From: Escherichia coli
GTDB lineage: Bacteria > Pseudomonadota > Gammaproteobacteria > Enterobacterales > Enterobacteriaceae
Direction: 5' to 3' (one strand)
Length of the DNA stretch: 64,000 nucleotides
Assembly: GCF_045037415.1 (NCBI RefSeq)
Contig: NZ_CP173438.1
Shown here: positions 13,590-33,105 of the stretch, one piece after another
Layout of the letters: each line of letters begins with the position of its first letter
How positions within the stretch are numbered: position 1 is the first letter of the stretch
Program-made: the position numbers and the translations under genes
Notes under the pieces: generated by a model
What the model saw: only the letters and a program-made list of their open reading frames with translations
Told to the model about the DNA's origin: nothing
Database searches by the model: none

Positions 13590-13612
13590 ATTGCCCCGCT
13601 TATCGGGGCAAT
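13590..13612 (-). terminator. Terminator-like hairpin downstream of ygiC (ATTGCCCCG-CTTAT-CGGGGCAAT)
   Basis: 9-bp GC-rich inverted repeat immediately 3' of the ygiC stop on the minus strand. Confidence 0.45.
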
Positions 13613-13623
13613 ATTAAGCTGTA

Positions 13624-14784
13624 TTACTCAACAAAAATATGTGGATAAAACCGAGACATATCCTGGGTGATCAATGCACGGTCTTCACGAATGCCAATTC
13701 CGGCAGGTTGATCGTTCACCAGCCAGCTACCAATCAGCATATAGCTGTCGCCGAATTTCGGTAACGGGTGGAATTGCTGAACAATCATCCCTTCTTCGCC
13801 ATACGGACCTTCCGCTGCTTCAATGGTTTTGCCGTTCTCAATGATCGACACGTTTGCGCCTTCACGGGAGAAGATCGGTTTAACCACATATTTTTCCATT
13901 TGCGGATGATCATCTTCCGCAAAATAAGCGGGCAGCAGGTTCGGGTGATTCGGGAACATCTCCCACAGTAGCGGTAGAAGCGCTTTGTTGGAGATAATGC
14001 TCTTCCACGCCGGTTCCAGCCAGCGTACGCCTGCATCCTCCAGCTTGGTGGAGAACATCTCACGCAACATAAATTCCCACGGATACAGCTTGAACAGGTT
14101 GGAAATCACCTGATCCTGTAAATCCGTGAACTGACCTTTTTCACCTAACCCGATATCGTCAATGTAGAGGAACTCGGTGGCGATTTCAGCTTCCGTTGCG
14201 CAGTCCTGCAAATACTGAATGGTTCCGCGATCTTCCACCGTGTCGCGACAGCAGGTGAGATGCAGCAACTGGAAGCCATACTGTTCACGCAGCTCAACGA
14301 AGCGATCGATCAGCTTTTCTTGCAGACTGTTAAACTGGTCGCTGCCCTCCGGCAAGTTACCGGCGTTAAGCTGATCTTCCAGCCAGATCCACTGAAAGAA
14401 CGCCGCCTCGTATAGTGACGTTGGCGTATCGGCGTTATTTTCCAGAAGTTTAGGTTCGCCAGTGCCATCCCACGCCAGATCAAGACGCGAATAAAGCGAT
14501 GGCTGGTGCGTCAGCCATGACTGGCGCACAAAACTCCAGGTGTGTTTTGGTATGCGGAATTTGGTCATCAGCTCATCGCTGGCGATCACTTTTTCCACCA
14601 CTTTCAGGCACATCTGGTGCAGTTCGGCGGTGACTTCTTCCAGCTTTTCAACCTGAGAGAGGGTCAACTTGTAGTAAGCATCTTCACACCAGTACGGCTC
14701 GCCGTACATGGTGTGAAAATTGAAACCGTATTCGTGGGCTTTTTCGCGCCAGTCCGGGCGCTCGGTAATACTGACTCTTTCCAT
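13624..14784 (-). CDS. ygiC: Glutathionylspermidine-synthase-like ATP-grasp protein YgiC, 386 aa
   Basis: 386-aa product [38 protein letters not shown]... recognised as YgiC; adjacent to ygiB and tolC. Confidence 0.9.
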
Positions 14785-14789
14785 CGGTA

Positions 14790-15461
14790 TCAGCCACCCA
14801 TTGAACGAGAAGAGGTGCCGGTTGCGCTACGCTGCATAGTGCTTTGTTTGGCAACAGATTCACCAAAACCGCCACGGGTAACAGTAGTAGTGGTCGCCGG
14901 TTTTGGTGCCATTGCCGTCTTCGGTACGGTCATGGTGCGGCCTGGCTGGGCTGCGCCATAGTTTTTACCGGTCGCGTCGGTATATTTACCGTAAGCCGGG
15001 CTGGCCGGGTTTTTCGAGGAGAACAGCGGCTGCTGTGCAAATCCCGCGCCGCCGCCCATCAGACGTCCCATCATGTAACCGGCCATCAGCGGCATCCAGA
15101 AACTCCCGCTGGATTGCTGGGCCTGCGCCTGGTTTTCTGGTGCCATGCCAGCCTGGGCTGGTGCCTGCTGGCACTGACCTTCACCAAATTCAGCAACACA
15201 GTCTTCACGGGTGGCGTATTTCGGCGCAGTACGTTCGGCTTCTTTCAGCGCATTGTTGTACGCGGTGGTACATTCGGCGCTTTTGCCTGGGTTTGCAGCT
15301 GAACAGTCGTCAGCATTTTGATAGAGAGACACTGTTTCATCACTCTTTTCACAGCCCGCCAGCATAAAAACAGTGGCAACCGCGAGAGCGACTGGTGTCA
15401 GATGGCGTGCGCTCCAGTTTTTGCGGAACGATGCGTGGCGTATGGATTTTGTCCGTTTCAT
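14790..15461 (-). CDS. ygiB: DUF1190 lipoprotein YgiB, 223 aa
   Basis: ORF 14790..15494; start at [16 protein letters not shown]... with lipobox-like LAGC; Gly/Met/Ala/Gln-rich C-terminus typical of YgiB. Confidence 0.85.
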
Positions 15462-15608
15462 TTTTGTCTTCCGGGACCAGTGGTAAATACCCATCAGAAT
15501 AGAGGATGGCTGGTCGAAATTGAAGCGAGAAGGGGGAAGAATGCGGCAGATAACCCGTATCTTTACGTTGCCTTACGTTCAGACGGGGCCGAAGCCCCGT
15601 CGTCGTCG

Positions 15609-17090
15609 TCAGTTACGGAAAGGGTTATGACCGTTACTGGTGGTAGTGCGTGCGGATGTTTGCTGAACGACTGGTGCCGGGCTATCAGGCGCATAACCAT
15701 CAGCAATAGCATTCTGTTCCGGCGTTTGCGGGGCAACGTTTTCCGGATTAGTGGAAACCGGTTTGCTCAGCGCATTGTTCAGTGCCAGCAGATCCTGCTC
15801 GTTCAACGTACCCAGAGCTGACTTAATATTCAACTGGTTAATCAGGTAGTTATAACGCGCATTTGCCAGCTCTTGCTTAGCGTTGTACAGCGTGGTGGTC
15901 GCATCCAACACATCAACAATGGTACGCGTACCGACCGAGTAACCCGCCTCCATCGCGTCTAATGAGCTTTGAGCGGAAACTACGGCTTGTTTGTAGGCGT
16001 TAATGCTACTGATAGAAGCATTAATGTTGTTGAAGGAGGAACGTACGGTTTGTACGACGCTACGATGCGCGCTTTCCAGTTGCTCGCTGGCACCAACAAA
16101 GTTGTACTGGGCCTGTTTCACCTGCGAGTTAACCATTCCGCCCTGATAAATCGGCAGCGAGAAGCTCAGGCCAACTTTGTTCTGGCCCATATTGCTATCG
16201 TCATACTGGGTACCAGCGGCACCACGGGTTTTCGAACCGCTATAAGAGGTGTCAGAAATCCCGGTAGAAGCCGTTAAATCCAGAGTCGGTAAGTGACCAT
16301 CCTGCGCCTGGCGAATTTGCTCGCGCGCCAGGTCCTGGCTCAAACGCGCCTGTAACAGGGACAGGTTGCGTTTTTCGGCTTCTTTCAGCAGCGTGTTAAC
16401 CGGCTGTGGTTTGTCGGTTTTAAAGTTTTCGACATTCAGCGCCGCCAGTTCCGGATAGTAGTTACCGGTGATCTGGCGCAGCTGCTCTACCGCGTTATCA
16501 AGGTTATTACGTGCGGTCACTTCGTTCGCCAGCACGGTATCGTACTGTGCGCGGGCGTTCTGCACGTCGGTGATCGCTACCAGGCCCACGTTAAAACGTT
16601 GGGTGGTTTGATCTAATTGACGGTAGATCGCTTCTTTTTGCGCCTGTGTATAGGAAAGAACGTCAATCGCATTCAACACGTTGAAATAAGCGGTCGCGGT
16701 GTTGAGGATCAAGGTTTGTTGATCGGTCTGATACGTGACGTCCTGAATCCCAGCTGCTTTTTCCTGCAGCGTTAACGCACGCCATTTCGACATATCAAAA
16801 ATGGATTGAGTTAACTGCAGGGACGCACTGGTCGCGTTAGAGTTGATGCCGTTCGCGTCGCGGTAGCCGTTGCTATAGGTGTAATCTGCACCTAAACCTA
16901 GCTGTGGCAGTAATGGACTGCGCGCTTCATTAATTTTTTCAAAGGCAGCATCACGATCGGCGGCAGACTTACGCAATTCCGGGTTACTAAGGCGTGCTTG
17001 CTGATAAACTTGCATCAGGTTCTCGGCCTGGCTCAACGAACTGAACCCAGAGAGGCTCAGGCCGATAAGAATGGGGAGCAATTTCTTCAT
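15609..17090 (-). CDS. tolC: Outer membrane channel TolC, 493 aa
   Basis: ORF 15609..17129; start at MKKLLPILIGLSLSGFSSLSQAENLMQVYQQARLSNPELRKS..., a canonical TolC sequence. Confidence 0.95.
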   Translation of the reverse strand: MKKLLPILIGLSLSGFSSLSQAENLMQVYQQARLSNPELRKSAADRDAAFEKINEARSPLLPQLGLGADYTYSNGYRDANGINSNATSASLQLTQSIFDMSKWRALTLQEKAAGIQDVTYQTDQQTLILNTATAYFNVLNAIDVLSYTQAQKEAIYRQLDQTTQRFNVGLVAITDVQNARAQYDTVLANEVTARNNLDNAVEQLRQITGNYYPELAALNVENFKTDKPQPVNTLLKEAEKRNLSLLQARLSQDLAREQIRQAQDGHLPTLDLTASTGISDTSYSGSKTRGAAGTQYDDSNMGQNKVGLSFSLPIYQGGMVNSQVKQAQYNFVGASEQLESAHRSVVQTVRSSFNNINASISSINAYKQAVVSAQSSLDAMEAGYSVGTRTIVDVLDATTTLYNAKQELANARYNYLINQLNIKSALGTLNEQDLLALNNALSKPVSTNPENVAPQTPEQNAIADGYAPDSPAPVVQQTSARTTTSNGHNPFRN

Positions 17091-17294
17091 TTGCATTCCT
17101 TGTGGTGAAGCAGTATTTAGCGCGATCAAACTGTAAAATTATTGCGGATTCTAGCAGAAGCCGCTACCGCAAAAGGTTGGCGTTACGTGCCATAGGGCGT
17201 TAATGTGCCTCAATTTAACACATGACTGCTCAAACGGCAGTCAAACGTCGCTGAAATTCACATTTAATTCACTATTAGTGCCAGGACATTAACA

Positions 17295-17924
17295 ATGCTT
17301 AAGCCAGACAACCTGCCCGTTACATTTGGCAAAAACGATGTAGAAATTATTGCACGAGAAACACTTTATCGCGGCTTTTTTTCATTAGATCTTTATAGAT
17401 TTCGTCATCGTCTATTCAACGGGCAAATGAGTCATGAGGTACGGCGGGAAATTTTTGAGCGCGGTCACGCCGCAGTCTTGCTACCCTTTGACCCAGTGCG
17501 TGATGAAGTTGTGCTGATTGAGCAGATTCGGATTGCCGCGTACGACACCAGCGAAACCCCTTGGCTACTGGAGATGGTTGCCGGGATGATTGAAGAGGGT
17601 GAAAGTGTGGAAGATGTTGCCCGTCGCGAAGCGATTGAAGAGGCGGGACTGATAGTCAAACGGACCAAACCGGTGTTAAGTTTCCTGGCAAGCCCGGGGG
17701 GCACCAGTGAGCGTTCGTCAATTATGGTGGGCGAAGTGGACGCCACGACCGCAAGCGGTATTCACGGTCTGGCTGATGAAAACGAAGATATTCGCGTTCA
17801 TGTGGTAAGCCGGGAACAGGCATACCAGTGGGTAGAAGAGGGGAAAATCGACAACGCAGCGTCGGTCATCGCTTTGCAATGGCTGCAGCTGCATCATCAA
17901 GCGTTAAAAAATGAGTGGGCATAA
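17295..17924 (+). CDS. nudF: ADP-ribose pyrophosphatase NudF, 209 aa
   Basis: Nudix box region (..[22 protein letters not shown]..) and tolC-adjacent context. Confidence 0.9.
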
Positions 17925-18347
17925 ATGAAGCGTTACACACCTGACTTTCCTGAAATGATGCGCCTGTGCGAGATGAACTTTTCACAATTGCGCCGTTTGT
18001 TACCGCGCAATGACGCACCCGGCGAAACTGTAAGCTATCAGGTGGCAAACGCACAATATCGGCTGACGATTGTGGAATCGACCCGATACACTACCCTGGT
18101 GACAATAGAACAGACTGCGCCCGCGATCAGTTACTGGAGCCTTCCGTCAATGACGGTGCGTCTGTATCATGACGCGATGGTGGCTGAAGTGTGTTCAAGC
18201 CAGCAGATTTTTCGCTTCAAAGCGCGGTATGATTATCCTAATAAAAAGTTGCATCAACGCGACGAAAAGCATCAAATTAATCAGTTTTTAGCGGACTGGT
18301 TGCGATACTGTTTAGCACATGGAGCGATGGCGATTCCGGTTTATTAG
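17925..18347 (+). CDS. yqiB: DUF1249 protein YqiB, 140 aa
   Basis: 140-aa ORF whose start overlaps the nudF stop (ATGA); conserved nudF-yqiB-cpdA-yqiA arrangement. Confidence 0.8.
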
Positions 18348-18371
18348 CGTCGTGAAACCTAAGGACACCAT

Positions 18372-19199
18372 TTGGAAAGCCTGTTAACCCTTCCTCTGGC
18401 TGGTGAGGCCAGAGTCAGGATTTTACAAATTACCGACACTCACCTGTTTGCACAAAAGCACGAAGCCCTGTTAGGGGTAAACACCTGGGAAAGCTACCAG
18501 GCGGTGCTGGAGGCGATTCGGCCACACCAGCACGAATTCGACCTGATTGTCGCGACAGGTGATTTAGCGCAGGATCAATCCTCTGCGGCCTATCAGCATT
18601 TCGCTGAAGGCATCGCAAGTTTTCGTGCGCCCTGCGTCTGGCTGCCGGGCAACCACGATTTCCAGCCCGCGATGTACAGTGCGTTACAGGATGCGGGTAT
18701 CTCCCCGGCGAAGCGGGTGTTTATTGGTGAGCAATGGCAAATCCTGTTGCTGGATAGCCAGGTGTTTGGCGTGCCGCACGGTGAGCTGAGCGAGTTTCAG
18801 CTTGAGTGGCTGGAACGTAAACTGGCCGATGCGCCAGAACGCCATACGTTGCTGCTGCTGCATCATCATCCGCTACCTGCGGGTTGTAGTTGGCTTGATC
18901 AACACAGCCTGCGTAACGCGGGCGAACTGGATACCGTGCTGGCGAAGTTTCCGCACGTCAAATACTTGCTGTGCGGTCATATTCATCAGGAGCTGGATCT
19001 CGACTGGAACGGTCGCCGCCTGCTGGCAACGCCGTCGACCTGTGTGCAGTTTAAGCCGCACTGTTCCAACTTTACGCTGGATACCATCGCGCCCGGCTGG
19101 CGTACTCTTGAGTTACATGCTGATGGCACGCTGACCACCGAGGTGCATCGCCTGGCGGACGCACGCTTCCAACCTGATACCGCTTCAGAAGGCTACTGA
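18372..19199 (+). CDS. cpdA: 3',5'-cyclic AMP phosphodiesterase CpdA, 275 aa (TTG start as called by the ORF track)
   Basis: Metallophosphoesterase motifs (ITDTH, GDL, GNHD, HHHP, GHIH) in the product. Confidence 0.9.
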
Positions 19200-19780
19200 T
19201 GTCTACGCTTCTTTATTTACACGGTTTCAACAGCTCGCCGCGCTCTGCAAAAGCGAGCTTGTTAAAAAACTGGCTGGCGGAACATCACCCTGACGTTGAG
19301 ATGATCATTCCGCAGCTGCCGCCGTATCCTTCCGACGCGGCAGAACTGCTGGAATCCATTGTCCTGGAACATGGCGGCGATTCGCTGGGTATTGTCGGTT
19401 CGTCACTGGGGGGATATTACGCCACCTGGTTGTCGCAATGTTTTATGCTGCCCGCAGTGGTGGTCAACCCGGCGGTGCGCCCGTTTGAACTGCTGACGGA
19501 CTATCTCGGTCAGAACGAGAACCCCTACACCGGGCAGCAATATGTGCTAGAGTCACGCCATATTTACGATCTCAAAGTCATGCAGATTGACCCGCTGGAA
19601 GCGCCGGATTTGATCTGGCTGCTGCAACAGACGGGAGATGAAGTGCTGGATTACCGCCAGGCGGTGGCGTACTACGCTTCCTGCCGCCAGACTGTCATAG
19701 AAGGCGGCAACCACGCATTCACGGGCTTCGAAGATTATTTCAACCCGATCGTCGATTTTCTTGGTCTGCACCATCTCTGA
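19199..19780 (+). CDS. yqiA: Esterase YqiA (alpha/beta hydrolase), 193 aa
   Basis: Start overlaps the cpdA stop; product [19 protein letters not shown]...GSSLGGYY has the serine-hydrolase nucleophile elbow. Confidence 0.85.
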
Positions 19781-19805
19781 CGATCAACTCGAATTGCTAA
19801 CTTAA

Positions 19806-21701
<1,896 letters not shown>

Positions 21702-21729
21702 TAATCCTCCCGCCAGAAGAATAAAACAT

Positions 21730-21762
21730 AGCCCGGTATACAAGTGTATACCGGGCTTTTTT
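21730..21762. terminator. Bidirectional rho-independent terminator between parE (+) and the TonB-dependent receptor gene (-)
   Basis: AGCCCGGTATAC-AAGT-GTATACCGGGCT hairpin followed by TTTTTT. Confidence 0.6.
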
Positions 21763-21764
21763 GA

Positions 21765-23906
21765 TCAAAATTCCATTTTCACCGTGAATTGCACTTCACG
21801 CGGATCGCCAATCTGATTCCCCAGATTATTTGTGGCGATGGAAGAGGTGTAATACGTTTTATCAAACAGGTTTTTGACGTTTAATTGCAGTGTGACCGGA
21901 TACTGCAATTTCATTTTGTATGCGGCGAAGGCATCGGCAACAAAATAGCCTGGCAGATAATAGTCAGCCCCATTGGTTGCCGAACGACGGCTTACACCAT
22001 GTCCACCACCGCCAAATGTCAGCGTATTATTGCCTGGCATGTTATGAATATCATAGGTCAGGAATAGCGAACCGGTATGACGAGGAACATTCGGCAATGG
22101 TTTCCCTGCATAATCAGGATCCTCCAGAACCTTAGCATCGGTATAGCCGTAGCTGGCAATGATATTAATGTTTTCAGTTAATGCTCCCGCAAGGTCGACT
22201 TCTACCCCTCTTGAACGAACACGGCCTGCCGTTTTGGCGATGGTTTCATCACCAATACTTTCGGTATACAACACATTACGTTTATGGATATCAAACAGCG
22301 CAATATCTGCGGTGATACCATCGAATAGCTCGAATTTTGCCCCGACTTCGTAAGCATTAGATGATTCCGGTGGAAGATCGCCAATGTAGCTGGCAATTGA
22401 CGACTGCGGCATAAATGTTTGCGAATAATTGGCAAATAAGGATACCGATGGCGTCAGTTTGTAGACCAACCCCAGTTTGGGAGTCCATTGTTCATCGCGG
22501 CTGTCAGTATTGACATTAAAAGGACGGCCTTTACCCGCATACTGCGTGTAATACTGATAGCGGATCCCGGCGACGGCAATCCAGTTATCGGTCAGATAGA
22601 GTGCGTCCTGTGCATACGCTGAGTAGCTCTCCTGTTTGATCGTCTGATCACTGTCCGACGCCGAAACCGTTGTACATTTGCTGGTATTACCATAAACAGG
22701 GTTGTAAATATTGAAATCTTTAGCTTTTTTACAGCGAATCATATCTGTACGCAGAAGATCATAATATTCATATGACACCCCACCCAGAATCTCATTATAG
22801 AATCCGGCAATATCAACATTCCCTTGCAGATCCGCACGAGTAGCATGCATACGCTGGGTAGAGCCCTGAGTTGCATCAACACGCCGTGTCAGTGTTCCTG
22901 TCGTTGCATCATATGCGGTAACACGCGCCTGATTATCGCTGTATTTATCCTGGCTGTAGCTGTAATCAAAGCGTGCTGTCCACTGGCTATTGAGATGATA
23001 TTCTGCGTTGAGTTGCGCCAGATCGGACTGACCATCTGTAATATTAAACGGTTCGTCAAAACGTATTTTTCGATCAACGTTTACGGGCTGTTTCGTCGTA
23101 AGGTCGAAAATCGTTCCACGATCGAACGGAGTTTTATAGTCCCGATGGGAATAGAGCATGGTTACTGTTGCATTATCACCAAACCATGTGAGTGACGGGG
23201 CAATAAATGTACTGCGCTCTTTACCGAAGTTTCGCCAGTAATCTTCATCCTGCACTTCCCCGGTAAGGCGATACGCCAGCTGAGTGCCTTCAATGGGACC
23301 TGTGATATCAAGTTGCCCAGTGCCGCCACCAAAACTGGAGGAGGTGGCTGAAACCGAACCATGGAATGTTTTTTCCGGGCGCTTGGTCACGACGTTAATC
23401 AGTCCGCCAGGATCGAGAATGCCATACAGCGTGGAGGCCGGGCCTTTTAGCACTTCCACACGTTCTGTGGCGGCGTTGAAACTGCGAGGAAGTACGGTTC
23501 GCAGACCGTTGGTCATGATGGAGCCATCCCGGTTTGCGCCAAACCCACGGCGTACAAAGGCGTCCTGAGTTCCGCCTAATGTATTGGTCTGTACCACGTT
23601 ACTGACGTTATAAAGCGCCTCATCCAGCGTTGTCGCATTCTGGTTTTCCAGAACCTGATCGCTAACCGTATTGACCACCTGCGGGATATCCAGCATCGGC
23701 ATATCGGTTAATGTCGCCGTAGAGGTGCTCAGAGGTTGATAACCATCGGTTGCCTCAGTTGCGGTATTTGCATCTGCTGTAACAGTGATTGTTTCGCCAT
23801 CTTTGGTCGTTACAGAGTCTGTTGCATGAATCATCGGTGCCGCAAAAAGCAGTGAAAAGAGCGCCCGACCTTTGAGTCCTGAGAATGAAGGTGTGAACAT
23901 AGCCAT
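21765..23906 (-). CDS. TonB-dependent outer-membrane siderophore receptor (fit-locus FitA-like), 713 aa
   Basis: Signal peptide, plug-domain and C-terminal beta-barrel ending ...QFTVKMEF (terminal aromatic residue); divergent from an iron-type ABC importer with a Fur-box-like site between them. Confidence 0.8.
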   Translation of the reverse strand: MAMFTPSFSGLKGRALFSLLFAAPMIHATDSVTTKDGETITVTADANTATEATDGYQPLSTSTATLTDMPMLDIPQVVNTVSDQVLENQNATTLDEALYNVSNVVQTNTLGGTQDAFVRRGFGANRDGSIMTNGLRTVLPRSFNAATERVEVLKGPASTLYGILDPGGLINVVTKRPEKTFHGSVSATSSSFGGGTGQLDITGPIEGTQLAYRLTGEVQDEDYWRNFGKERSTFIAPSLTWFGDNATVTMLYSHRDYKTPFDRGTIFDLTTKQPVNVDRKIRFDEPFNITDGQSDLAQLNAEYHLNSQWTARFDYSYSQDKYSDNQARVTAYDATTGTLTRRVDATQGSTQRMHATRADLQGNVDIAGFYNEILGGVSYEYYDLLRTDMIRCKKAKDFNIYNPVYGNTSKCTTVSASDSDQTIKQESYSAYAQDALYLTDNWIAVAGIRYQYYTQYAGKGRPFNVNTDSRDEQWTPKLGLVYKLTPSVSLFANYSQTFMPQSSIASYIGDLPPESSNAYEVGAKFELFDGITADIALFDIHKRNVLYTESIGDETIAKTAGRVRSRGVEVDLAGALTENINIIASYGYTDAKVLEDPDYAGKPLPNVPRHTGSLFLTYDIHNMPGNNTLTFGGGGHGVSRRSATNGADYYLPGYFVADAFAAYKMKLQYPVTLQLNVKNLFDKTYYTSSIATNNLGNQIGDPREVQFTVKMEF

Positions 23907-24005
23907 TTAGTCTGTTATCCCAAAAACTCGCGGATTGTCGCGAGTGAAAATTGTTTCTTATTGCTCACTAAGCACTATCCGTTTGTTATTTCGCCATCGG
24001 ATATG

Positions 24006-24024
24006 TAATTGAGAATCATTCAAT
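24006..24024. promoter_or_regulatory. Candidate Fur box in the divergent promoter region between the receptor and the ABC importer operon
   Basis: TAATTGAGAATCATTCAAT resembles the Fur consensus GATAATGATAATCATTATC (about 11/19, core GAGAATCATTC); AT-rich intergenic region. Confidence 0.45.
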
Positions 24025-24279
24025 CACGCAGTAATGTAGTAGTAAATGAGAAATAACAAAAAATTGCTACATGTGTTTTTATGAAAGGTTTATACAATTT
24101 GATTGCTTTTAATTTATTGATATTTAATGTTTTTATTTTTATGTATAAAAATATTTTACCTGTTATTTACCTTGTTTTTGTGTGGCTTTTAACTGCTTGA
24201 CTACTACATTTTGTGGCGTCAAACTCTCAAAGGAGAATGAGTTTTATTTTTGTTTGTCTTTGATTAAGTTGGCGTACAC

Positions 24280-25089
24280 GTGGCACATAACGCAAAAGGG
24301 CAGGGGCTGATCCTCGACAATGTTTCTGCCGGGTATCACAAGAAAATCATTGTTGATGGTGTTTCTTTCTCCGTTCCCACAGAAAAAATGACCGTTCTGG
24401 TTGGGGCAAACGGCTGTGGAAAGTCGACGTTGCTCAGCACCATTGCACGTATCTTGCAACCTATGGGCGGTTCGATATTGCTTGATGGCAAAGCGATTCA
24501 CGAGCAACCAACGAAAGCGTTATCCCGTAGACTTGGGATCTTGCCGCAGTCGCCATTATTGCCGGAGGGCTTAACCGTTTATGAACTGGTGTCGCGTGGG
24601 CGTTTTCCCTGGCAAAATTTCATACGTCAATGGAGCGACGCCGATGAGCAGGCGGTGGAAGAGGCCCTGAAATTAACCGGTACGCAGGAGTTTGCACATT
24701 TACCTGTTGAAAAACTCTCTGGTGGGCAGCGCCAGCGTTGCTGGATTGCGATGGTGTTGGCGCAAAAGACGCCTTATATCCTGCTGGATGAACCCACAAC
24801 CTGGCTTGATTTACGTTATCAGGTTGAAATTCTTGAGTTATTACATGATTTAACGCGTCATCACGGGCGTACAGTCGTCGTGGTGTTGCATGATCTGAAT
24901 TTTGCCGTCAATTATGGCGATACGTTGATATTTTTACGCCAGGGGAAAGTGGTGCGTGTGTTGAATGAGGGGGAGCATTGCACGCCTGAACTGGTAAAAG
25001 CTGTCTTTGACGTTGATGTTCACGCATCAATAAATCCTCTGACGGGAAAGCCGTTCTTCATGCCGTTTCGTGGTGTAGAAAAAGTATGA
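24280..25089 (+). CDS. ABC transporter ATP-binding protein (iron-siderophore/FecE-like), 269 aa, GTG start
   Basis: Walker A GANGCGKST, ABC signature LSGGQRQR, Walker B ILLDEPT. Confidence 0.85.
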   Translation: MAHNAKGQGLILDNVSAGYHKKIIVDGVSFSVPTEKMTVLVGANGCGKSTLLSTIARILQPMGGSILLDGKAIHEQPTKALSRRLGILPQSPLLPEGLTVYELVSRGRFPWQNFIRQWSDADEQAVEEALKLTGTQEFAHLPVEKLSGGQRQRCWIAMVLAQKTPYILLDEPTTWLDLRYQVEILELLHDLTRHHGRTVVVVLHDLNFAVNYGDTLIFLRQGKVVRVLNEGEHCTPELVKAVFDVDVHASINPLTGKPFFMPFRGVEKV

Positions 25090-26069
25090 TGCGCACAGGG
25101 CTGGTTACTGTAATTTTCCTCGCCTTACTGCTGGTGGGATGCGTGGTATATCCAGGGATTGGTGCCCGATTTATTGCACCACAAACGGTGTTGCAGGCAT
25201 TTCTTCATTTTGATCCGCAAAACTTCGATCACAACGTAATTGTAAGACTCCGTTTGCCGCGTTTAGCGGCAGCATTGCTTACCGGTGCTTCTCTTGGTGT
25301 TGCTGGTGCTTTGTTGCAGGCTGTCATTCGTAACCCATTGGGGGAACCACATATTTTAGGCTTAAATGCCGGAGCCGCTCTTGCTGTCGTTGCCGCCAGT
25401 GCGCTTGGACTGGCCTTTCCGGTTGGACGCCCACTGCTGGCATCTACGGGGGGCGCGTTATTGTTCCTGTTGATATTGCTGCTTTCCTCCGCAGGGCGTT
25501 CAGGGTTAACGCCAATGAAAGTTACTTTATGCGGCGTGGCGCTATCGGCGTTCGTGTCCTCAATAACGGCTGCAATCCTGATTCTTGACGAACAAACACT
25601 GCTGGCGATGCGGACATGGCTAGCAGGTGATTTAGCGGGGCAGGATTGGGCGACGCTGGGTACGTCCGCCTGGTTTTCTCTGGGGGGATTTGTGTTAGCC
25701 CTTTACCTTGCACCCTCCCTTAACATGTTGGCACTGGGCGATCGCATGGCGCAGGGGCTGGGCGTCTCTGTACTCCGCACGCGAACATTCACCCTGCTTG
25801 CGATCGCGTTGCTCTGTGGCGCAGCCGTATCGATTGCTGGCCCCATTGGTTTTGTCGGCCTGCTAGTACCGCAGATTGTCCGGCGTCTGGTATCAGCGGA
25901 TCTGCGCGTTCTGCTCCCTCTTTCAGCTTGTGTCGGCGCGCTTTTGTTATTACTGGCAGATATTATTGCCCGGACGCTTTTCACGCCCCATGAGTTAGCG
26001 ACCGGTGTCATGACGGCGTTAGTTGGTGCGCCTGTTTTTGTCATTATGGCGACGAGGATGTTCAAATGA
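25086..26069 (+). CDS. ABC transporter permease (FecCD family), 327 aa
   Basis: Polytopic hydrophobic protein; start overlaps the ATPase stop (translational coupling). Confidence 0.85.
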   Translation: MMRTGLVTVIFLALLLVGCVVYPGIGARFIAPQTVLQAFLHFDPQNFDHNVIVRLRLPRLAAALLTGASLGVAGALLQAVIRNPLGEPHILGLNAGAALAVVAASALGLAFPVGRPLLASTGGALLFLLILLLSSAGRSGLTPMKVTLCGVALSAFVSSITAAILILDEQTLLAMRTWLAGDLAGQDWATLGTSAWFSLGGFVLALYLAPSLNMLALGDRMAQGLGVSVLRTRTFTLLAIALLCGAAVSIAGPIGFVGLLVPQIVRRLVSADLRVLLPLSACVGALLLLLADIIARTLFTPHELATGVMTALVGAPVFVIMATRMFK

Positions 26070-27115
26070 GTCGGATAATGAACGTCGGGCTACGCCCACT
26101 ACGTGTTGGTAAGTTTTCGACACTGGTGCGCCCTAAAAATCTGCTGTTGCTTGGTGGGCTGTTCCTGCTTGCGGTTGGAATACTGATATTCGGTCTGATG
26201 CAGGGTTCTTTCTCTGTTCCGGCATCGGAAGTAGGACGAGCGTTGTTTGCTCCAGAAAACGTAAGCACAGACGCACGTTATATTGTGCAGGATATTCGCT
26301 TGCCGAGAGTCATCATGGCATTGCTATGCGGGGCCATGTTAGGTATGGCAGGGGCCGCAATGCAATCCATTGCACGTAACGGCCTTGCCGATCCTGGTTT
26401 AATCGGCGTCAAAGAAGGATGTAGCGTGGCTGTGCTGTGGCTGATTTTCCAGTTTCCAATGCTGGGAATGTTCTGGCGTCCAGTGGCTGGTCTTGCTGGT
26501 GGCCTGTTGGTGGCTTTAATCGTGATTTTTTGTGCGCGCGATATTTCCCGCCCGCGATTTGTTCTGATTGGTATTGGTGTTTCCTGGTTTTTCGCCGCCG
26601 GTATCGGTGTATTTATGACCACTGCAGATGTTCGAGATGTACAAACTGCATTGATGTGGTTATCGGGAAGCCTGCATGCAGCTAACTGGATGTTAGTCGG
26701 TATTTCAGCCTGTTGGATGTTGCCAGCCGCTCTTTTATTGCTGTTCACCGCCAGGACTGCGGATATCGCTCTGCTTGGTCATCAGGTTGCAACCGGGTTA
26801 GGGGTGAATAGTTCTCGTCTGGCGTTGTTACGTGTCGCCGCACCCATAATCCTGACAGCCGTCTGCGTTTCGTGTGTTGGTAACATCGGTTTTGTCGGAT
26901 TGATAGCACCCCATATATCACGTTTTATTCTACGTGGCGGGCAGACGACATTACTGCTGGGGAGCGCGGTATCGGGGGCGTTGTTAGTTATTCTGGCGGA
27001 TAGCATTGGTCGTTTGGCTTTTTTGCCTTTGCAACTGCCTGCCGGAATCATTATCTCACTGATTGGTGGACCATTTTTTTTACTACTGCTCTGGCAGCGC
27101 AGGAACAGTTTTTAA
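26066..27115 (+). CDS. ABC transporter permease (FecCD family), 349 aa
   Basis: Second FecCD-type permease; start overlaps the preceding stop. Confidence 0.85.
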   Translation: MSRIMNVGLRPLRVGKFSTLVRPKNLLLLGGLFLLAVGILIFGLMQGSFSVPASEVGRALFAPENVSTDARYIVQDIRLPRVIMALLCGAMLGMAGAAMQSIARNGLADPGLIGVKEGCSVAVLWLIFQFPMLGMFWRPVAGLAGGLLVALIVIFCARDISRPRFVLIGIGVSWFFAAGIGVFMTTADVRDVQTALMWLSGSLHAANWMLVGISACWMLPAALLLLFTARTADIALLGHQVATGLGVNSSRLALLRVAAPIILTAVCVSCVGNIGFVGLIAPHISRFILRGGQTTLLLGSAVSGALLVILADSIGRLAFLPLQLPAGIIISLIGGPFFLLLLWQRRNSF

Positions 27116-27125
27116 CGGGAGTTAT

Positions 27126-28073
27126 ATGCGTTTATTTTTTTCTCTGCTGATACTGTTGTCATTTTTTTCCCGTGCAACAGAACCTGTTCAGGTATTTACT
27201 GATGATTTAGGGCGCAAAGTCACTGTTCCTGCTCATCCAAAGAGAATTGTCTCTTTACACGATCTTGATATCACTATTCCTCTGATTGAGCTCGGTGTAC
27301 CTCCTGTCGCCAGCCACGGGCGAACTCGGCCTGACGGTAGCCATTTCATTCGATCTGGCGCGTTATTGACAGGTGTCGACTTTGATAATTCATCGATCGC
27401 CTTTATTGGTACCGCTGATATTGATATTGAAGCGATTGTGGCGGCAAAGCCTGACTTGATCATCACAGAACCGACCCGTAATACGCCCATTGAACAACTT
27501 GAAAAAATTGCGCCCACGGTGAGCATTGATCATCTCAAAGGGGGCGCGCCAGAAATCTATCGCAAGCTGGCAGAACTTACAGGAACGCAGTCGCAGCTGG
27601 CGATACTTGAACGCCGCTATCAGGCACAAATCAATGCGCTGAAGGCGACGCTGGACAGCCAAAAAATAACGGTATCGGTGATTCAGGCAAACCAGGGAAA
27701 AATTAATGTGATGCATAGCTATCATTCGCTGGGACGGGTATTACGCGATGCTGGTTTTCGTTTTCCGCCGCTGATTGAGAGCATTCCTGAAGGTGGGCGA
27801 ATGGATGTGAGCGCGGAGCGTTTACCTGAACTGGATGCCGATTTTGTTTTTGCAACCTGGCGCGGTGACACCGGTGGTAAACCTCAGGATGAGCTGGCAG
27901 CAATGGAAAAAGTCATGCCGGGATGGTGTCAGTTTCTGACTGCCTGTCGTTCCGGGCGTTATGTGCTGATTTCTCGTGAAGAGGCAATTTCTAACTCCTT
28001 TGCATCTCTGGGGCTGATGGCTGCGCAGATACAATCACAAATTGCAGGGCGACCTCTACCGGAGGCTAAATGA
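27126..28073 (+). CDS. Periplasmic iron-siderophore binding protein (FhuD/FecB-like), about 315 aa
   Basis: ORF 27063..28073; start chosen at the ATG preceded by GGGAG; signal peptide MRLFFSLLILLSFFSRA; class III SBP-like composition. Confidence 0.8.
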   Translation: MRLFFSLLILLSFFSRATEPVQVFTDDLGRKVTVPAHPKRIVSLHDLDITIPLIELGVPPVASHGRTRPDGSHFIRSGALLTGVDFDNSSIAFIGTADIDIEAIVAAKPDLIITEPTRNTPIEQLEKIAPTVSIDHLKGGAPEIYRKLAELTGTQSQLAILERRYQAQINALKATLDSQKITVSVIQANQGKINVMHSYHSLGRVLRDAGFRFPPLIESIPEGGRMDVSAERLPELDADFVFATWRGDTGGKPQDELAAMEKVMPGWCQFLTACRSGRYVLISREEAISNSFASLGLMAAQIQSQIAGRPLPEAK

Positions 28074-28957
28074 TCCAGAAAGATAAAGTGCGGGTTGATA
28101 TTTTTGGTGAGCGTTTTCGCACTCGCGCGAGTCAGTTAACGCCTGGGTTAAGAGTTGTCGCCAGCTACATTAATGAGCATCGTGAAGTGGTACTCGAGCA
28201 AACGGCGATGGAAATTGCGGCCACGTTGAACACTTCCGATGCCACAGTTATCAGGGCTATACAGGCCCTGGGGTTTGCCGGGCTGCGTGATCTGAAACGC
28301 ACTCTGGAACAGTGGCTTGGTCCAGCCCTTAGTTCCAGCGAAAAGATGTCTACGACGGTGAGTAACTTGACGAGCGATGTTAACACCGCAATCGACTTTG
28401 TTCTTGAAGGGCATTTGTATACCTGTAATGTCCTGTCAGAGCCTGAAAACCGCCACGCGCTTGCGCAAGCTGTAGCGTTGTTGGTGCAGGCACGGCAAGT
28501 CGCAATTTTTGGCATTGGCGCTTCGGGTATTCTGGCGGACTATACCGCACGACTATTCAACCGCATAGGTTTGCCTGCCACGGCACTAAACCGTACGGGT
28601 ATTGGCCTTGCCGAGCAACTGATCGCGCTTCAACGTGGCGATGTTCTGATCATGATGGCGCAAAAATCTGCGCACCGGGAAGGGCTGACAACGCTTCGTG
28701 AGGCGAGGCGGCTGGGGATCCCTGTTATTTTGCTGACAAACGCGCTGGATTCACGTTTTAGCAAAGACGCCAGTATCGTGATTCATGTTCCGCGCGGGGA
28801 TGAAAAAGGGAAAACGCCGCTACATGGTACGGTATTGTTGTGTCTGGAAATGATTGTCTGGTCGGTAGCTTCCGCAGTGCCGCAGCGTGCGGTTAAAACC
28901 ATTAAGCGAATTAACGATTTCCATCGAGGACTGAAAACGGGAAGAAAGAATGGCTAA
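28070..28957 (+). CDS. RpiR/MurR-family transcriptional regulator (HTH plus SIS domain; fit-locus FitR-like), 295 aa
   Basis: N-terminal HTH (..EIAATLNTSDATVIRAIQALGF..) and C-terminal SIS-type sugar-phosphate binding region; start overlaps the binding-protein stop. Confidence 0.8.
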   Translation: MIQKDKVRVDIFGERFRTRASQLTPGLRVVASYINEHREVVLEQTAMEIAATLNTSDATVIRAIQALGFAGLRDLKRTLEQWLGPALSSSEKMSTTVSNLTSDVNTAIDFVLEGHLYTCNVLSEPENRHALAQAVALLVQARQVAIFGIGASGILADYTARLFNRIGLPATALNRTGIGLAEQLIALQRGDVLIMMAQKSAHREGLTTLREARRLGIPVILLTNALDSRFSKDASIVIHVPRGDEKGKTPLHGTVLLCLEMIVWSVASAVPQRAVKTIKRINDFHRGLKTGRKNG

Positions 28958-29001
28958 TCTGGGCTGAGACCGGTAGCAGCACCGGCCTCTTTTTAGAAAT
29001 G

Positions 29002-29316
29002 TCAAAGCCCCGGCTGCAGGATACGAATATTCATCTCCAGCACGTCACCTTTTACGGCTTCGCTATATGCTTTCATGTGCGGGGTTTGCAGATGCGCTTC
29101 AAGATGCGCGATGCTTTCCCACTGCTCAATCATCACGATAGAATCCGGTGCCATAGACTGGAAACTCACGCCAGCAGCGCAATCCACCATTGGCGCATAG
29201 CCGTGGCAACCTTCTTCTTTCAGTACGGTTGGAACGATTTTAGCAAACTGATCCAACACTGCCTGACGGTGATGTTGACCAGGACGAGTACGAATTTCTG
29301 CGATTACTGTAATCAT
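29002..29316 (-). CDS. ygiN: Quinol monooxygenase YgiN (ABM domain), 104 aa
   Basis: Product MITVIAEIRTRPGQHHRQAVLDQFAKIVPTVLKEEGCHGYAP... recognised as YgiN; operon with mdaB. Confidence 0.9.
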   Translation of the reverse strand: MITVIAEIRTRPGQHHRQAVLDQFAKIVPTVLKEEGCHGYAPMVDCAAGVSFQSMAPDSIVMIEQWESIAHLEAHLQTPHMKAYSEAVKGDVLEMNIRILQPGL

Positions 29317-29346
29317 GGTTAACTCCTTCTAAAGCCAGAGCTCTAG

Positions 29347-29928
29347 TTAACCAAAAATTTCCACAAGATGCTTGCGATATTCTTCAGTATAGCGGGGAAC
29401 ATCAGGCATTTTTATCACGTCATTAGCGATAAATGTCGGCAGCGGTTCCATGCCAAGGAATTGGTTTGCTTTATGGAACGGCAGGTACACACCGTCAACA
29501 CCAACGCCGTGGAAGAACTGATCTTTTTCGGTGAAGGCTTCCATTGGTGCGTTCCAGGTCAGAGAAAGCATATATTTTTTGCCCTGTACCAGGCCGCCGG
29601 AACCGTATTTTTTTGATGGATCTTTGCGGGTACGACCATCGCTGGCATACAGAGTCCCGTGACCTTCGGTGAATACATCATCAATATATTTTTTCACTGT
29701 CCACGGCGCGCCCATCCACCAGCCAGGCATCTGCCAGATCACCACATCAGCCCAGAGAAAGTTTTGTACTTCCGCTTTGACATCGTAGTCGCTGTCGGCG
29801 CGAACAATGCGGACATCATGCCCGAGGTCGCGCAGTGTGCCATCCGCGACTTCGGTCAGGGTGTCGTTCAGTTGACCATTGGAGTGGGCGAATTTTTTCG
29901 CGCCGTTGATAATCAGGATGTTGCTCAT
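29347..29928 (-). CDS. mdaB: NADPH:quinone oxidoreductase MdaB, 193 aa
   Basis: ORF 29347..30084; start at MSNILIINGAKKFAHSNGQLNDTL... (flavodoxin-like fold). Confidence 0.9.
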   Translation of the reverse strand: MSNILIINGAKKFAHSNGQLNDTLTEVADGTLRDLGHDVRIVRADSDYDVKAEVQNFLWADVVIWQMPGWWMGAPWTVKKYIDDVFTEGHGTLYASDGRTRKDPSKKYGSGGLVQGKKYMLSLTWNAPMEAFTEKDQFFHGVGVDGVYLPFHKANQFLGMEPLPTFIANDVIKMPDVPRYTEEYRKHLVEIFG

Positions 29929-30178
29929 TTTTTTAACCTCAAGGTGAGACGTTTGCCGACTATAGTACGTCACAGAGCGGTACGGTGAAATTAGCAAAAT
30001 GTGCAAAGTCTTTTGCGAATTTAGCAAAAGTCTGATCTTTCTCTGATTCACCGATGCGGGATAAATATTTTCTGAAAATGACAATACTTAAATCAACTTC
30101 CCATAAGCTCCCACAGGAGAGATGTATTATGCAAATGATACAGGAGTTTTTCGGAAAAAATGATTATGGAGAATATAT

Positions 30179-30658
30179 ATGTCAAATATGATATACTTAT
30201 CAATTAAAGGGAAAATACAAGGTTTGATCTCTGAGGGTTGTGGTTCGTATGCATCTATTGGTAATAAATATCAAATAAATCATGTGGATGAAATTTTTGT
30301 TTTACAGTTCGACCATTCTTTAAGTCGAGAGTATAATGTAGTGCATCACCCCATAAAATTTTACAAGCCAATAGATAAATCCTCCCCTTTATTAAATGCC
30401 GCTCTTTCTGAAAATGAAGAGTTATCAGCTGTATTTAATTTTTATAGAATTAATTCTGGCGGTTGTATTGAAAGGTTTTACACAATTGAATTGCAAGGAG
30501 CACATTTATCGAATATTCTGACATGTTATCCACACTCAATTACACATGCGGGTAATCAGCCGGAAGAGGTCATTGTTCTTAATTATAAAAATATAACATG
30601 GAAGCACCATATCGCGAGTACGGAATCATATAGTTGTTGGGAAGAAAGGATTTTTTAA
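30179..30658 (+). CDS. hcp: Orphan Hcp-family protein (type VI secretion tube/cargo-carrier family), 159 aa
   Basis: Product MSNMIYLSIKGKIQG...HHPIKFYKPIDKSSPLLNAAL...FNFYRINSGG...VIVLNYKNITWKHH... follows the conserved Hcp pattern; AT-rich; no other T6SS core genes in the window. Confidence 0.75.
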   Translation: MSNMIYLSIKGKIQGLISEGCGSYASIGNKYQINHVDEIFVLQFDHSLSREYNVVHHPIKFYKPIDKSSPLLNAALSENEELSAVFNFYRINSGGCIERFYTIELQGAHLSNILTCYPHSITHAGNQPEEVIVLNYKNITWKHHIASTESYSCWEERIF

Positions 30659-30660
30659 AT

Positions 30661-31371
30661 ATGAAAAGCGATCTCACTATAAAAAATAGATATTGTACAA
30701 TTCCACAAGCGAAGTTCCGTAAATGGGATGAAATGGACGTTTTACTCTGGAAGTTAGGAAAAAATGATTCGCGTCGCCGTTCAGGAGTATATTATTTAAA
30801 TGCTTATAAAGATGCATATGTACAATATAATAGAGACAAAATAATTAAATATGCATACGCCGCTGGAATTCGTCCAGAGTTACTGGGCGGCGTGGCCTGG
30901 ATTGAGTCAGGAGGTATGCCTGAAAATTATAAGTTTCAGATATATGAAACAAAAAGAATGATCGGATTGTTAGATATGCCTGAAAATAAAACATCATTTG
31001 GCTCAATGGGTATACAAATACGAACCGCAGCGATTACTCTAGGTCTAGACCCTTCAGAATTAACTACCAGAAATCAGTTAGAGTTAGCGACATGCCTAAT
31101 GGAGGATGATTTTACCTTTCAAATTGCTGCTACTTATTTAAGAGATCTTGTTCTTTTTGATTATCCCTCTTCGGCAACACTGTATATGACGAATGAGCAG
31201 TATATTATGGCTGGTATTAGATATAATCGTGGTGTTGAACGAGATTTGGGTTTTTTTATTTGTTTAATTAATAATTTGCCTGCACGTGATACAGATGATT
31301 ATAAATTCATCTCTTATGGTATGAGGTTGTTAGAGATTAGAGAACATATCAAAAAATTGATTAATGAGTAA
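30661..31371 (+). CDS. Putative Hcp-associated effector with lytic-transglycosylase (SLT / lysozyme-like) motifs, 236 aa, no signal peptide
   Basis: ATG preceded by AAGGA, 2 nt after the hcp stop. Ordered motifs: E82-S83 (WIESGG), G117-I-Q-I120 with TAA (SMGIQIRTAA), A157-T-Y-L160 (QIAATYLRDL), Y188-N-R-G191 (GIRYNRG). AT-rich. Confidence 0.6.
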   Translation: MKSDLTIKNRYCTIPQAKFRKWDEMDVLLWKLGKNDSRRRSGVYYLNAYKDAYVQYNRDKIIKYAYAAGIRPELLGGVAWIESGGMPENYKFQIYETKRMIGLLDMPENKTSFGSMGIQIRTAAITLGLDPSELTTRNQLELATCLMEDDFTFQIAATYLRDLVLFDYPSSATLYMTNEQYIMAGIRYNRGVERDLGFFICLINNLPARDTDDYKFISYGMRLLEIREHIKKLINE

Positions 31372-31377
31372 TCAGAT

Positions 31378-31710
31378 ATGTTAAAAAAACAACTACTATC
31401 AATATTTGAAGCACTATTATATATAATGCTTACTTATTGGTTAATAGATTCTTTTTTTGCTTTCAATAAGTATGACTGGATGCTTGAGTCGGGAGACAAT
31501 ATTTGCAGTATACCTTCTGTTTCAGGCGAAGATCGTATATTACAAGCAATGATTGCAGCATTTTTTCTTCTGACACCACTTATTATTCTTATCTTAAGAA
31601 AACTCTTTATGCGGGAAATGTTCGAGTTTTGGCTATATGTATTCTCGCTCGTTATTTGTCTGGGTTGTGGTTGGTGGCTTTTTTGGGGACGGTTTATATT
31701 TTGCTATTAG
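31378..31710 (+). CDS. ygiZ: Small polytopic inner-membrane protein YgiZ, 110 aa; candidate cognate immunity protein
   Basis: Starts 6 nt after the effector stop on the same strand; three predicted TM helices; matches YgiZ in size and in position next to qseC. Confidence 0.7.
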   Translation: MLKKQLLSIFEALLYIMLTYWLIDSFFAFNKYDWMLESGDNICSIPSVSGEDRILQAMIAAFFLLTPLIILILRKLFMREMFEFWLYVFSLVICLGCGWWLFWGRFIFCY

Positions 31711-31755
31711 TAAAGTCTATGAGAGTCGTTTTAACGGCTCTCATAGACAGAGAAG

Positions 31756-33105
31756 TTACCAGCTTACCTTCGCTTCAAATCCACCTTGTTTCGCATTCCC
31801 AAAATCAACATTCATGCCATGCAATTTGGCGATTCGCTGGACAATCGATAGCCCAAGTCCACTGCCGGTAGCGGTTTGTCCGGGTGGGCGATAGAAGCGT
31901 TCGCCAATTCGCGCCAGTGCCTCTGGTGTCACACCAGGGCCGTTATCCCTCACGATGAAATTATCGGCATTCAGCGTGACGTCTACCACGCTACCTTGTG
32001 GACTGTAACGCACGGCGTTATCCAGCAAATTTCGCACCAACAAACTTAGCAATAGCGGTTGTCCGGTGCGTTTGATGCCGTTGGCATTGAGTGTCAGTCG
32101 CACGTCAATGTTCGCCTGCTGCGCCGTGTGGTAAATATCCATCACCGACGATTGCAGGAGATCTTCAAGCGGGATCTCCGCGACGTCCTGAAGGTTATCC
32201 AGTGAGTCCAGCCGCGATAGCGTGAGCAGTTGATCAACCAGACGAGTAGCGCGATCGATCCCGGAATGTAATTGGAGCAGCGCTTTTTTCCGCGCCTGCG
32301 GATCATCGTCAGAGAGCTGAGCAACTTCGGTTTGCACTTTCAGCGCCGTTAACGGGCTACGAAGTTCGTGAGCTGCGTCGGAGGTAAAGCGTCGTTCACG
32401 AACCATCATCGCATGTGTGCGGGCGAACAGTTGATTTAGCGACTCAACCAGTGGGCGCACTTCGCTGGGTACGCCCGTCGCGTTTAGTGGTTTTTCCGAG
32501 TCTGGGTCACGCATACGTAGTGCCAGCGCCAGTTTGTTCAGCGGCGCGAGTTCACGACCCAGTAGCACCATCATGATGATTAACATAATCGGCAGTGCGA
32601 CCAGCCACGGGATCAATTGTCCGGCAACAATCGCCAGCGCCATGTCTTCACGGTATTCCCATTCCTGACCCACAACGATGCGATATTTGCCATCAGGTGA
32701 GGTCATCCAGACAAAACGCCAGGGATCGTCTTCACCGACCAGTTGCCCGTCAGCAAAACCTTCCCGCTGATAGCTATAGGGAATATCTTCTCCGTTATCG
32801 CCATCGTTAAGGACCATTCTGCCGTCGTGGGTAAAGATGGCAAAAGTCAGCGCATCGTCATCAACATGACCGTGTTTTAATTTATTTGGCGTCTGTGCCA
32901 TGCGATCCGCCGCGTTGATTTCGTTGAGATCGAGCGTACTTAACCGTTTGGCAAACAGCATCAGTTGGGTGTCGAACAACTCATCGACGTTATCCGTTGT
33001 TTGTTTCCAGGCGACAAAGCTGGAAAGCAGCCAGGTCACCGAGGCCAGAATTAAAAAGATTAGCGTCAGCCTGACTCGCAGACTAAGACGTTGGGTAAAT
33101 TTCAT
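31756..33105 (-). CDS. qseC: Sensor histidine kinase QseC, 449 aa
   Basis: Two TM segments, HAMP, H-box (..[12 protein letters not shown]..) and HATPase region; overlaps the qseB stop. Confidence 0.9.

Follow-up and report, generated by a model that had tools for sequence, protein, structure and literature searches.

The fit system of Escherichia coli, a siderophore-type iron uptake cassette, was reportedly first described by Ouyang and Isaacson in 2006 (Infect Immun). A cluster of this kind occupied positions 21765 to 28957 of the 64-kb stretch of E. coli chromosome analyzed here (contig NZ_CP173438.1; the window in what follows), with fitA divergent from fitB-fitC-fitD-fitE-fitR. Judged by its sequence, the locus is the chromosomal fit cluster of extraintestinal/B2-type E. 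coli, which was already known. It is very probably a self-contained cassette for uptake of a ferric chelate, with no linked synthesis genes, two layers of repression and the operators proposed below. The map of its spacer and the altered SIS pocket of its regulator appear as modest additions to a known locus.

Regulation of fit was described by Ouyang and Isaacson (Open Microbiol J 2008, PMC2593036), with the expression work done in strain i484. A fur mutant showed 23-fold derepression of fit, and FitR acted as an autorepressor binding the fitA-fitB spacer independently of Fur. Over-expressed FitR repressed fitA and fitB, a fitR mutant was derepressed 2-5 fold with repression restored by complementation, and induction by an iron chelator persisted without FitR (PMC2593036). 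His-tagged FitR shifted a 359-bp spacer probe in electrophoretic mobility shift assays (EMSA), a shift that unlabelled probe competed away (PMC2593036). A literature search for later work on the FitR operator or effector returned nothing beyond that paper. FitA protein was detected in outer membranes of adherent-invasive E. coli (AIEC) and is largely confined to phylogroup B2 (PMC9409007), and the Fit substrate is not enterobactin (PMC5907654).

Among described uptake systems, Fit resembles hydroxamate uptake of the Fhu/Fox type: each has a TonB-dependent receptor, a binding protein of cluster A and an ABC importer of FecCD type (FhuBC in Fhu), Fur control and, presumably for Fit, foreign siderophores as cargo. 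Of all named proteins, the FhuA/FhuE/FoxA receptors come nearest to FitA and the FhuD-type proteins to FitE. Fit has its own one-component repressor, whereas the E. coli fhu genes lack one. A dedicated second regulator placed over Fur for one uptake system, as FitR is for fit, is also found in the FecIR sigma/anti-sigma pair and in the AraC-type regulators PchR, YbtA, AlcR and FoxR. These belong to other protein families and are usually activators responding to the cognate siderophore. Fit differs from such systems in that FitA has no signalling domain, no extracytoplasmic function (ECF) sigma gene is linked and FitR is a repressor.

The closest described regulators share the HTH_6 plus SIS architecture of FitR and comprise RccR of Pseudomonas (PDB 8JU9/8K3B), HexR, MurR and NanR. 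RccR and MurR are tetramers, and like FitR they are autoregulated; the divergent spacer controlled by MurR contains two operators to which it binds (PMC11014249, PMC9177960). The RccR operator is a TGTAGT/ACTACA palindrome, established by footprinting, EMSA and mutated probes, and its PaceA site reads TGTAGTAGT...ACTACA (PMC11014249). The RpiR family has been concluded to recognise phosphorylated metabolites (PMC11014249, PMC9177960): RccR holds the phosphate of KDPG (2-keto-3-deoxy-6-phosphogluconate) via S139, S183, S185 and S188 (PMC11014249), while MurR uses S146, S190 and S192, its S190A variant being without detectable binding (PMC9177960). FitR differs from RccR in sharing only ~21-23% identity with it and in controlling an iron transporter, whereas RccR-type regulators control carbon metabolism.

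Identity and organization of the fit locus

Six open reading frames (ORFs) made up the locus according to the ORF list, Pfam and NCBI models (Table 1). They lay exactly where the original prediction, made from the letters of the window, had described a receptor, an ATPase, two FecCD permeases, a binding protein and an RpiR regulator, and parE and ygiN flanked them as it had proposed. That prediction spoke of a fit-like iron locus. The block is the published fit locus itself rather than merely a fit-like one, because the primers, the FitE structure and the 7193-bp extent, along with the gene order, all agree.

Comparison with the published fit locus, proposed as a check of the prediction, came out in its favor: each of the 18 fit primers (Table 2 of PMC2593036) fell in the gene and on the strand predicted for it, and apart from a single mismatch in fitC_R the matches were exact (17 primers). 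The fitA quantitative PCR (qPCR) primers mapped at 23086-23162, the fitR1, fitR2 and qPCR primers within fitR, and the published promoter probe corresponded to window positions 23928-24286. FitE was essentially identical to PDB 3BE5/3BE6 over residues 19-315 (E = 2e-195); this crystal structure is from Shi et al. 2009 (Proteins), as cited in PMC3080849, and Ec-FitE is given as 3BE6 in PMC10553834. In a 2026 genome paper the 'fit operon' measures 7193 bp (PMC12928451), exactly as long as the span 21765-28957. Gene order, orientation, primer sites, FitE sequence and extent were thus those of the published E. coli fit system, with no material difference, whereas the RefSeq annotation carried family names only, without fit gene names.

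Table 1. Coordinates in the window of the genes, spacer elements and hairpins of the fit locus and its flanks
Feature	Position	Strand	Description
parE	19809-21701		TIGR01055, 1249 bits; upstream flank
Hairpin, perfect 12-bp stem	21730-21757	both	Between convergent parE/fitA 3' ends; likely a bidirectional terminator (terminator scan)
fitA	21765-23906	-	TonB-dependent outer-membrane siderophore receptor, 713 aa; signal peptide, TonB box ETITVTA
Block 1, TGTAATTGAGAATCATTCAAnCA	24004-24026		Fur-like box 24005-24023 (12/19), putative extended -10 of PfitA, TGTAAT 24004-24009; invariant in 9 genera
Block 2, TGTAGTAGTAAA	24035-24046		TGTAGT 24035-24040 and predicted PfitA -35 TTTACT (minus strand, 24046..24041); candidate FitR half-site
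GCTACA	24066-24071		Inverted partner, conserved in part of the loci, at 31 bp from the hexamer at 24035
Block 3, TTGACTACTACA, consensus TTGACTACTAC(A)	24197-24208	+	Predicted PfitB -35 TTGACT 24197-24202 fused to ACTACA 24203-24208
PfitB -10, CAAACT	24220-24225	+	Predicted; 17 nt after the -35
Block 4, GAGAATGAGTTTTATTTTTGTTT, consensus GAGAATGAG.TTATTTTT.TTT	24233-24255		Fur-like box (13/19), predicted at about +1 to +20 of PfitB
fitB	24280-25089	+	ABC ATPase; GTG start following the published promoter primer and RefSeq
fitC	25086-26069	+	FecCD-family permease; PF01032, 299 bits; published primers map here
fitD	26078-27115	+	FecCD-family permease; PF01032, 262 bits; RefSeq start, longest ORF from 26066
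fitE	27126-28073	+	Peripla_BP_2 binding protein, 315 aa, 18-aa signal peptide; longest ORF from 27063
fitR	28070-28957	+	RpiR/MurR repressor (HTH_6 + SIS), 295 aa; start overlaps fitE stop by 4 nt
Terminator-like hairpin after fitR	28970-28985	+	Terminator scan
ygiN	29002-29316	-	Downstream flank, followed by mdaB, also on the minus strand

The RefSeq start of fitE was upheld by the signal peptide and by 3BE5 beginning at residue 19 of the product. The start of fitB was annotated from GTG in E. coli, Salmonella and Lelliottia, while the aligned region was untranslated in other genera, where a GGAG-type ribosome-binding site followed by ATG stood in the region aligned to the fitB start. From this alignment, E. 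coli fitB could really start not at 24280 but at an in-frame ATG, that of position 24319. A scan of positions 21000-32000 with Rfam found no RNA family.

FitR and its effector pocket

The original prediction called an RpiR regulator on an iron system unusual and its effector unknown. The remark is fair, but FitR had already been published as a Fur-independent autorepressor. Both of its domains scored above the Pfam cut-off (PF01418, 38.8 bits; PF01380, 52 bits). Among solved proteins, P. aeruginosa RccR came closest to it both in sequence and in fold, and the top Foldseek matches of its AlphaFold model were RccR, 3SHO, NanR and MurR; the mean pLDDT of the model (65) suffices for fold assignment and is too low for pocket modelling. 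Two layers of repression, both shown in PMC2593036, would act on PfitA and PfitB, a strong one by Fur with iron and a weaker one by FitR. FitR would also repress itself, because fitR closes the fitBCDER operon.

The SIS pocket of FitR departed from that of its characterized relatives. Residues were assigned from two independent pairwise HMMER alignments, with RccR and NanR, which agreed. Of the four serines that bind the phosphate in its relatives, FitR retains a single one (S152), followed by A197, K199 and H202 at the positions of RccR S183, S185 and S188. The loop reads AQKSAHR (residues 197-203) in FitR, SQSGRSK in RccR and SSSGSTK in NanR. In eleven FitR orthologues, including the Pantoea type, the loop MAQKSAHREG was essentially invariant, as were R161 and R165. 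By its sequence FitR is a member of a large non-canonical RpiR branch, because the nearest ~100 cluster representatives of an exhaustive search also all lacked the canonical loop, most of them reading AYGRxYxE. Genomic context does not define this wider branch: the regulator of sister clade P0127 (45% identity to FitR) closes another operon of a receptor and a FecCD ABC importer, and clades P0123 (52%) and P0129 (42%) are not iron-linked. We know of no defined effector for the branch, for which no literature search was made. The FitR effector is probably an anionic small molecule, and not a phosphosugar bound in the canonical manner.

FitR might instead be a sensor of metabolism and not of the substrate, its SIS domain binding a phosphosugar of central metabolism (as RccR and HexR bind KDPG) and coupling iron transport to carbon status, a possibility that we take seriously and still find doubtful. 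Every known RpiR-family effector carries a phosphate (PMC11014249, PMC9177960), and the basic pocket of FitR (R161, R165, K199, H202, R203) could hold one in another geometry. The conservation of the system can be read in the same direction. In Pantoea-type loci the regulator was 65-67% identical to FitR and Blocks 1 and 2 were unchanged, while identity to FitA was 36% for the receptor and identity to FitE 24% for the binding protein. Regulator and operator are therefore the most conserved part of the system, which fits a common cellular signal better than one siderophore, and the repression by FitR was only 2-5 fold, as measured in LB medium (PMC2593036). Against a phosphosugar stands the replacement of three of the four phosphate-binding serines, the single change S190A abolishing detectable binding in MurR (PMC9177960). 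The replacement loop is moreover invariant in the clade, which argues that the pocket has been remodelled and is under selection. A second proposal, equally tentative, is that FitR-type regulators form a distinct RpiR branch whose remodelled basic pocket (AQKSAHR, R161, R165) senses the siderophore, its iron-free form or a breakdown product, which would make fit a substrate-inducible piracy system.

Predicted promoters and candidate FitR operators in the fitA-fitB spacer

The spacer was surveyed in 84 distinct fitA-fitB loci of Enterobacteriaceae and Erwiniaceae, and blocks were defined from an alignment of nine genera. Mean column identity of this alignment was 49%, with four invariant or nearly invariant blocks (Table 1), which would define two divergent promoters, PfitA on the minus and PfitB on the plus strand. 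A 20-mer of Block 1 was found exactly in at least 80 species-representative genomes, nearly always between fitA and fitB homologues. On the PfitA side, the putative extended -10 TGnTTGAAT (24026..24018, minus strand) was present in 84/84 loci and the -35 TTTACT, 17 nt away, in 81/84. On the PfitB side, the -10 position, at a fixed 17 nt from the -35, read (C/T)AnnnT in all 72 of 72 loci (CATGAT in 29, CAAACT in 21, CAAAAT in 10).

A hexamer adjoined each predicted -35 element. In 83/84 loci TGTAGT stood at a distance of +31 from Block 1; the second promoter carried ACTAC[AC] in every one of the 84, including loci without TTGACT. A third, inverted copy (RCTACA) occurred at +61/62 from Block 1 in 52/84. 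Block 3 repeats Block 2 in inverted orientation at a distance of 150 nt (inverted repeat I2, 13/14), and was invariant in the nine genera. Both -35 hexamers were embedded in the 12-nt motif TT(G/T)ACTACTACA, in inverted orientation.

The hexamers at 24035-24040 and 24203-24208 are likely FitR operators, because they are the motif bound by RccR, the closest solved relative of FitR; the conserved fit motif equals the RccR operator down to the TGTAGTAGT form of PaceA. FitR, probably a tetramer like RccR and MurR, would bind hexamers that overlap both -35 elements and so occlude RNA polymerase, perhaps with a bridge between the two sites over 150 bp. Hexamer spacing differs between the systems, with 25 nt and 150 nt in fit compared with 3 nt (PaceE) and 14 nt by our count (PaceA, for which the paper says 16 bp) in the RccR probes.

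The TGTAGT/ACTACA blocks could also be promoter elements only (a -35 with its flanks) or sites of another host factor, with FitR binding elsewhere in the spacer. Both hexamers abut -35 elements, the published EMSA used the whole 359-bp fragment only (PMC2593036), and a glutamine (Q65) takes the place of a DNA-binding arginine of RccR (R56) in FitR. This explanation is unlikely. About 14 Pantoea loci, in which the second promoter drives the regulator gene alone, kept ACTACA without the TTGACT -35, so that ACTACA is more than a -35 element. The motif is identical to the operator of the closest characterized homologue, RccR (PMC11014249), and wherever a locus extended far enough to reveal a FitR-type gene, the motif was accompanied by one. 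The exact 9-mer ACTACTACA was found at Blocks 2 and 3 and nowhere else in the window.

Fur-like boxes

The original prediction had placed a Fur-box-like sequence between the two transcription units. Such a sequence is present and conserved, but at 12-13/19 it is no better than chance in a single sequence. The 19-bp Fur consensus gave no site with up to three mismatches in the 64-kb window. In the 373-bp spacer (30% GC) the best matches were 13/19 at 24233 and 12/19 at 24005 and 24119, and shuffled spacers attained 12-13/19 in 25-74% of trials. A Fur box cannot be claimed from one sequence, because chance gives such scores in an AT-rich spacer.

Comparison across genera rescued two of the three matches, those at 24005 and 24233, which fall in conserved blocks. 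The Fur score of Block 4 was at least 13/19 in 51/84 loci compared with 7/84 for a control stretch, and its Fur-like site lay at a fixed 31-33 nt from ACTACA across loci. The Shimwellia equivalent of the 24233 site reads GATAATGATATTTATTACT, ~15/19 as counted by eye. Fur would bind at 24005-24023, where the box covers the -10/+1 of PfitA, and at 24233-24251, where it covers the PfitB +1 region.

Transport of the ferric chelate and its possible nature

FitA carried the Plug (PF07715) and barrel (PF00593) domains of Pfam and scored 374 bits on the siderophore receptor model TIGR01783 (cut-off 223.5), the sole model that it passed. Its N-terminus reads MAMF...MIHA/TDS...ETITVTA; the TonB box of FhuA is DTITVTA. 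Pfam placed no N-terminal signalling (STN) domain in FitA, the Plug beginning at residue 72, and neither the ORF list nor the annotation held sigma or FecR genes inside the cassette. A FecA-type signalling transducer role for FitA was rejected on these grounds, given the absence of an STN domain and of a linked ECF sigma/anti-sigma pair. FitBCDE formed an importer set of FecCD/BtuCD type, with two FecCD permeases, one ATPase and one cluster-A binding protein of solved fold. From the protein families, FitA would carry a ferric chelate across the outer membrane in a TonB-dependent manner, FitE would be its periplasmic binder, and import would be the task of FitCD together with the ATPase FitB.

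The nearest solved structures of FitA were FoxA, the enantio-pyochelin receptor FetA and FhuA (~155-170 bits). It fell below every equivalog cut-off, the best named models being FhuA (230, cut-off 803), ferrioxamine receptors (FoxA 167, cut-off 1300) and FhuE. FitE was closest to YfiY and to hydroxamate binders of the FhuD kind. The Pantoea receptor was nearest to FhuA/FoxA, and the Pantoea binding protein to a ferrichrome/ferrioxamine binding protein. Siderophore-biosynthesis or catabolic genes, sought as a clue to the substrate, were not linked in any of 8 orthologous neighbourhoods, and nothing was recurrent in the flanks. Because of these nearest named relatives and the lack of linked biosynthesis genes, a hydroxamate-type xenosiderophore is, with moderate confidence, the most likely Fit substrate, as a lean and not a call.

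That the cassette imports a non-siderophore cargo (haem, a cobalamin-like compound or another metal chelate) is most improbable: no Fit substrate has been identified to date (PMC5907654), Fe2+, Co2+ and Cd2+ are listed for fit in PMC12928451 and FecCD/Peripla_BP_2 importers also carry haem and B12, but the score of FitA on the siderophore-receptor model exceeded its cut-off, compared with a haem-model score of 97 (cut-off 317) and a B12-model score of 43 (cut-off 600), its nearest solved structures were all siderophore receptors, the closest relatives of FitE bind hydroxamates or catecholates, and fit expression is under Fur and iron control (PMC2593036).

Several points weigh against the reading of the locus as a ferric-chelate cassette with the proposed operators. 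All matches to named receptors and binding proteins were far under the equivalog cut-offs, and for this reason the substrate class stays a lean; fit has also been described as related to uptake of Fe2+, Co2+ and Cd2+ (PMC12928451). A simple sigma-70 scan flagged nothing in the spacer, PfitA and PfitB each matching the consensus at 8/12 positions, and composition-matched shuffles of the spacer reached at least 13/19 for Fur in 25% of trials. Block 1 might owe its absolute invariance to Fur, to FitR, to the promoter or to these three together, which are inseparable in silico. FitR keeps one of the two DNA-binding arginines of RccR (R53, as R62), the other (R56) being replaced by Q65. Operator and promoter sites alike were placed by conservation and by analogy.

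Distribution and genomic context of the cassette

The full fit block was found in 1870/5426 complete E. coli genomes. K-12 lacks it and has 47 bp between ygiN and parE; compared with this empty site, no direct repeats or mobility genes were evident at the parE and ygiN junctions. The cassette also adjoins parE in Lelliottia, several Enterobacter species and Silvania, so that recent insertion and lineage loss are indistinguishable. FitR orthologues of 65-88% identity occurred in Salmonella, Lelliottia, Enterobacter, Kosakonia, Citrobacter, Raoultella, Klebsiella, Sodalis, Erwinia and Pantoea. The same six-gene cassette was present in eight neighbourhoods, with unrelated flanks that differed in every genus.

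Some loci showed variant arrangements. In Pantoea (L044, 10137-14736; L042, 3290-7873) a reduced variant consisted of a FitR-like regulator divergent from a receptor and a ferrichrome/ferrioxamine-type binding protein, with no permease or ATPase genes and identical operator blocks; it presumably borrows another ABC importer. Two PstS-like proteins were encoded between the binding-protein gene and the regulator in L092 (6010-7946). At the same place L003 (7007-10004) encoded two distant PstS-like proteins (50-75 bits, cut-off 207) and a PepSY_TM protein, which we take to be of the FoxB/FpvG-like reductase type. L003 is recorded as Pseudomonas cerasi, and its flanks (a beta-glucoside PTS, two GH1 genes and LacI) match those of Erwinia L008; the contig appears Erwiniaceae-like, not Pseudomonas, and the record may be mislabelled or contaminated. 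The Salmonella copy (L006) occupied another place in the chromosome, close to uspB and to a PHO4-family transporter, with a VgrG / DcrB / PAAR-RHS toxin island (12806-20888) just downstream of the cassette.

In the window, a two-gene insert of low GC (0.32-0.35) lay on the plus strand at 30179-31371, between mdaB and ygiZ, and is missing in K-12 MG1655. Its first gene encoded an orphan Hcp (PF05638, 73 bits) and its second a 236-aa protein without Pfam match; the insert may be an Hcp-associated effector or immunity pair away from any type VI secretion system cluster.

Significance for iron acquisition and its regulation

The basic picture of fit is unchanged, that of a known, ordinary Fur-controlled cassette for siderophore-type uptake. 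The locus is a marker of B2 and extraintestinal E. coli, AIEC among them, and in Klebsiella ST258 iron starvation induces its relatives. The comparative map turns this picture into base-level hypotheses, with two promoters, two Fur-like boxes and TGTAGT/ACTACA placed over both -35 elements. The altered SIS pocket argues against screening the usual phosphosugars alone. If the tentative proposal of a siderophore-sensing branch were true, FitR would be a new kind of siderophore-responsive one-component repressor, and an invariant operator module would have been reused before at least three receptor types across Enterobacteriaceae and Erwiniaceae. Should the FitR ligand turn out to be siderophore-related, it would widen the known range of signals for SIS-domain regulators.

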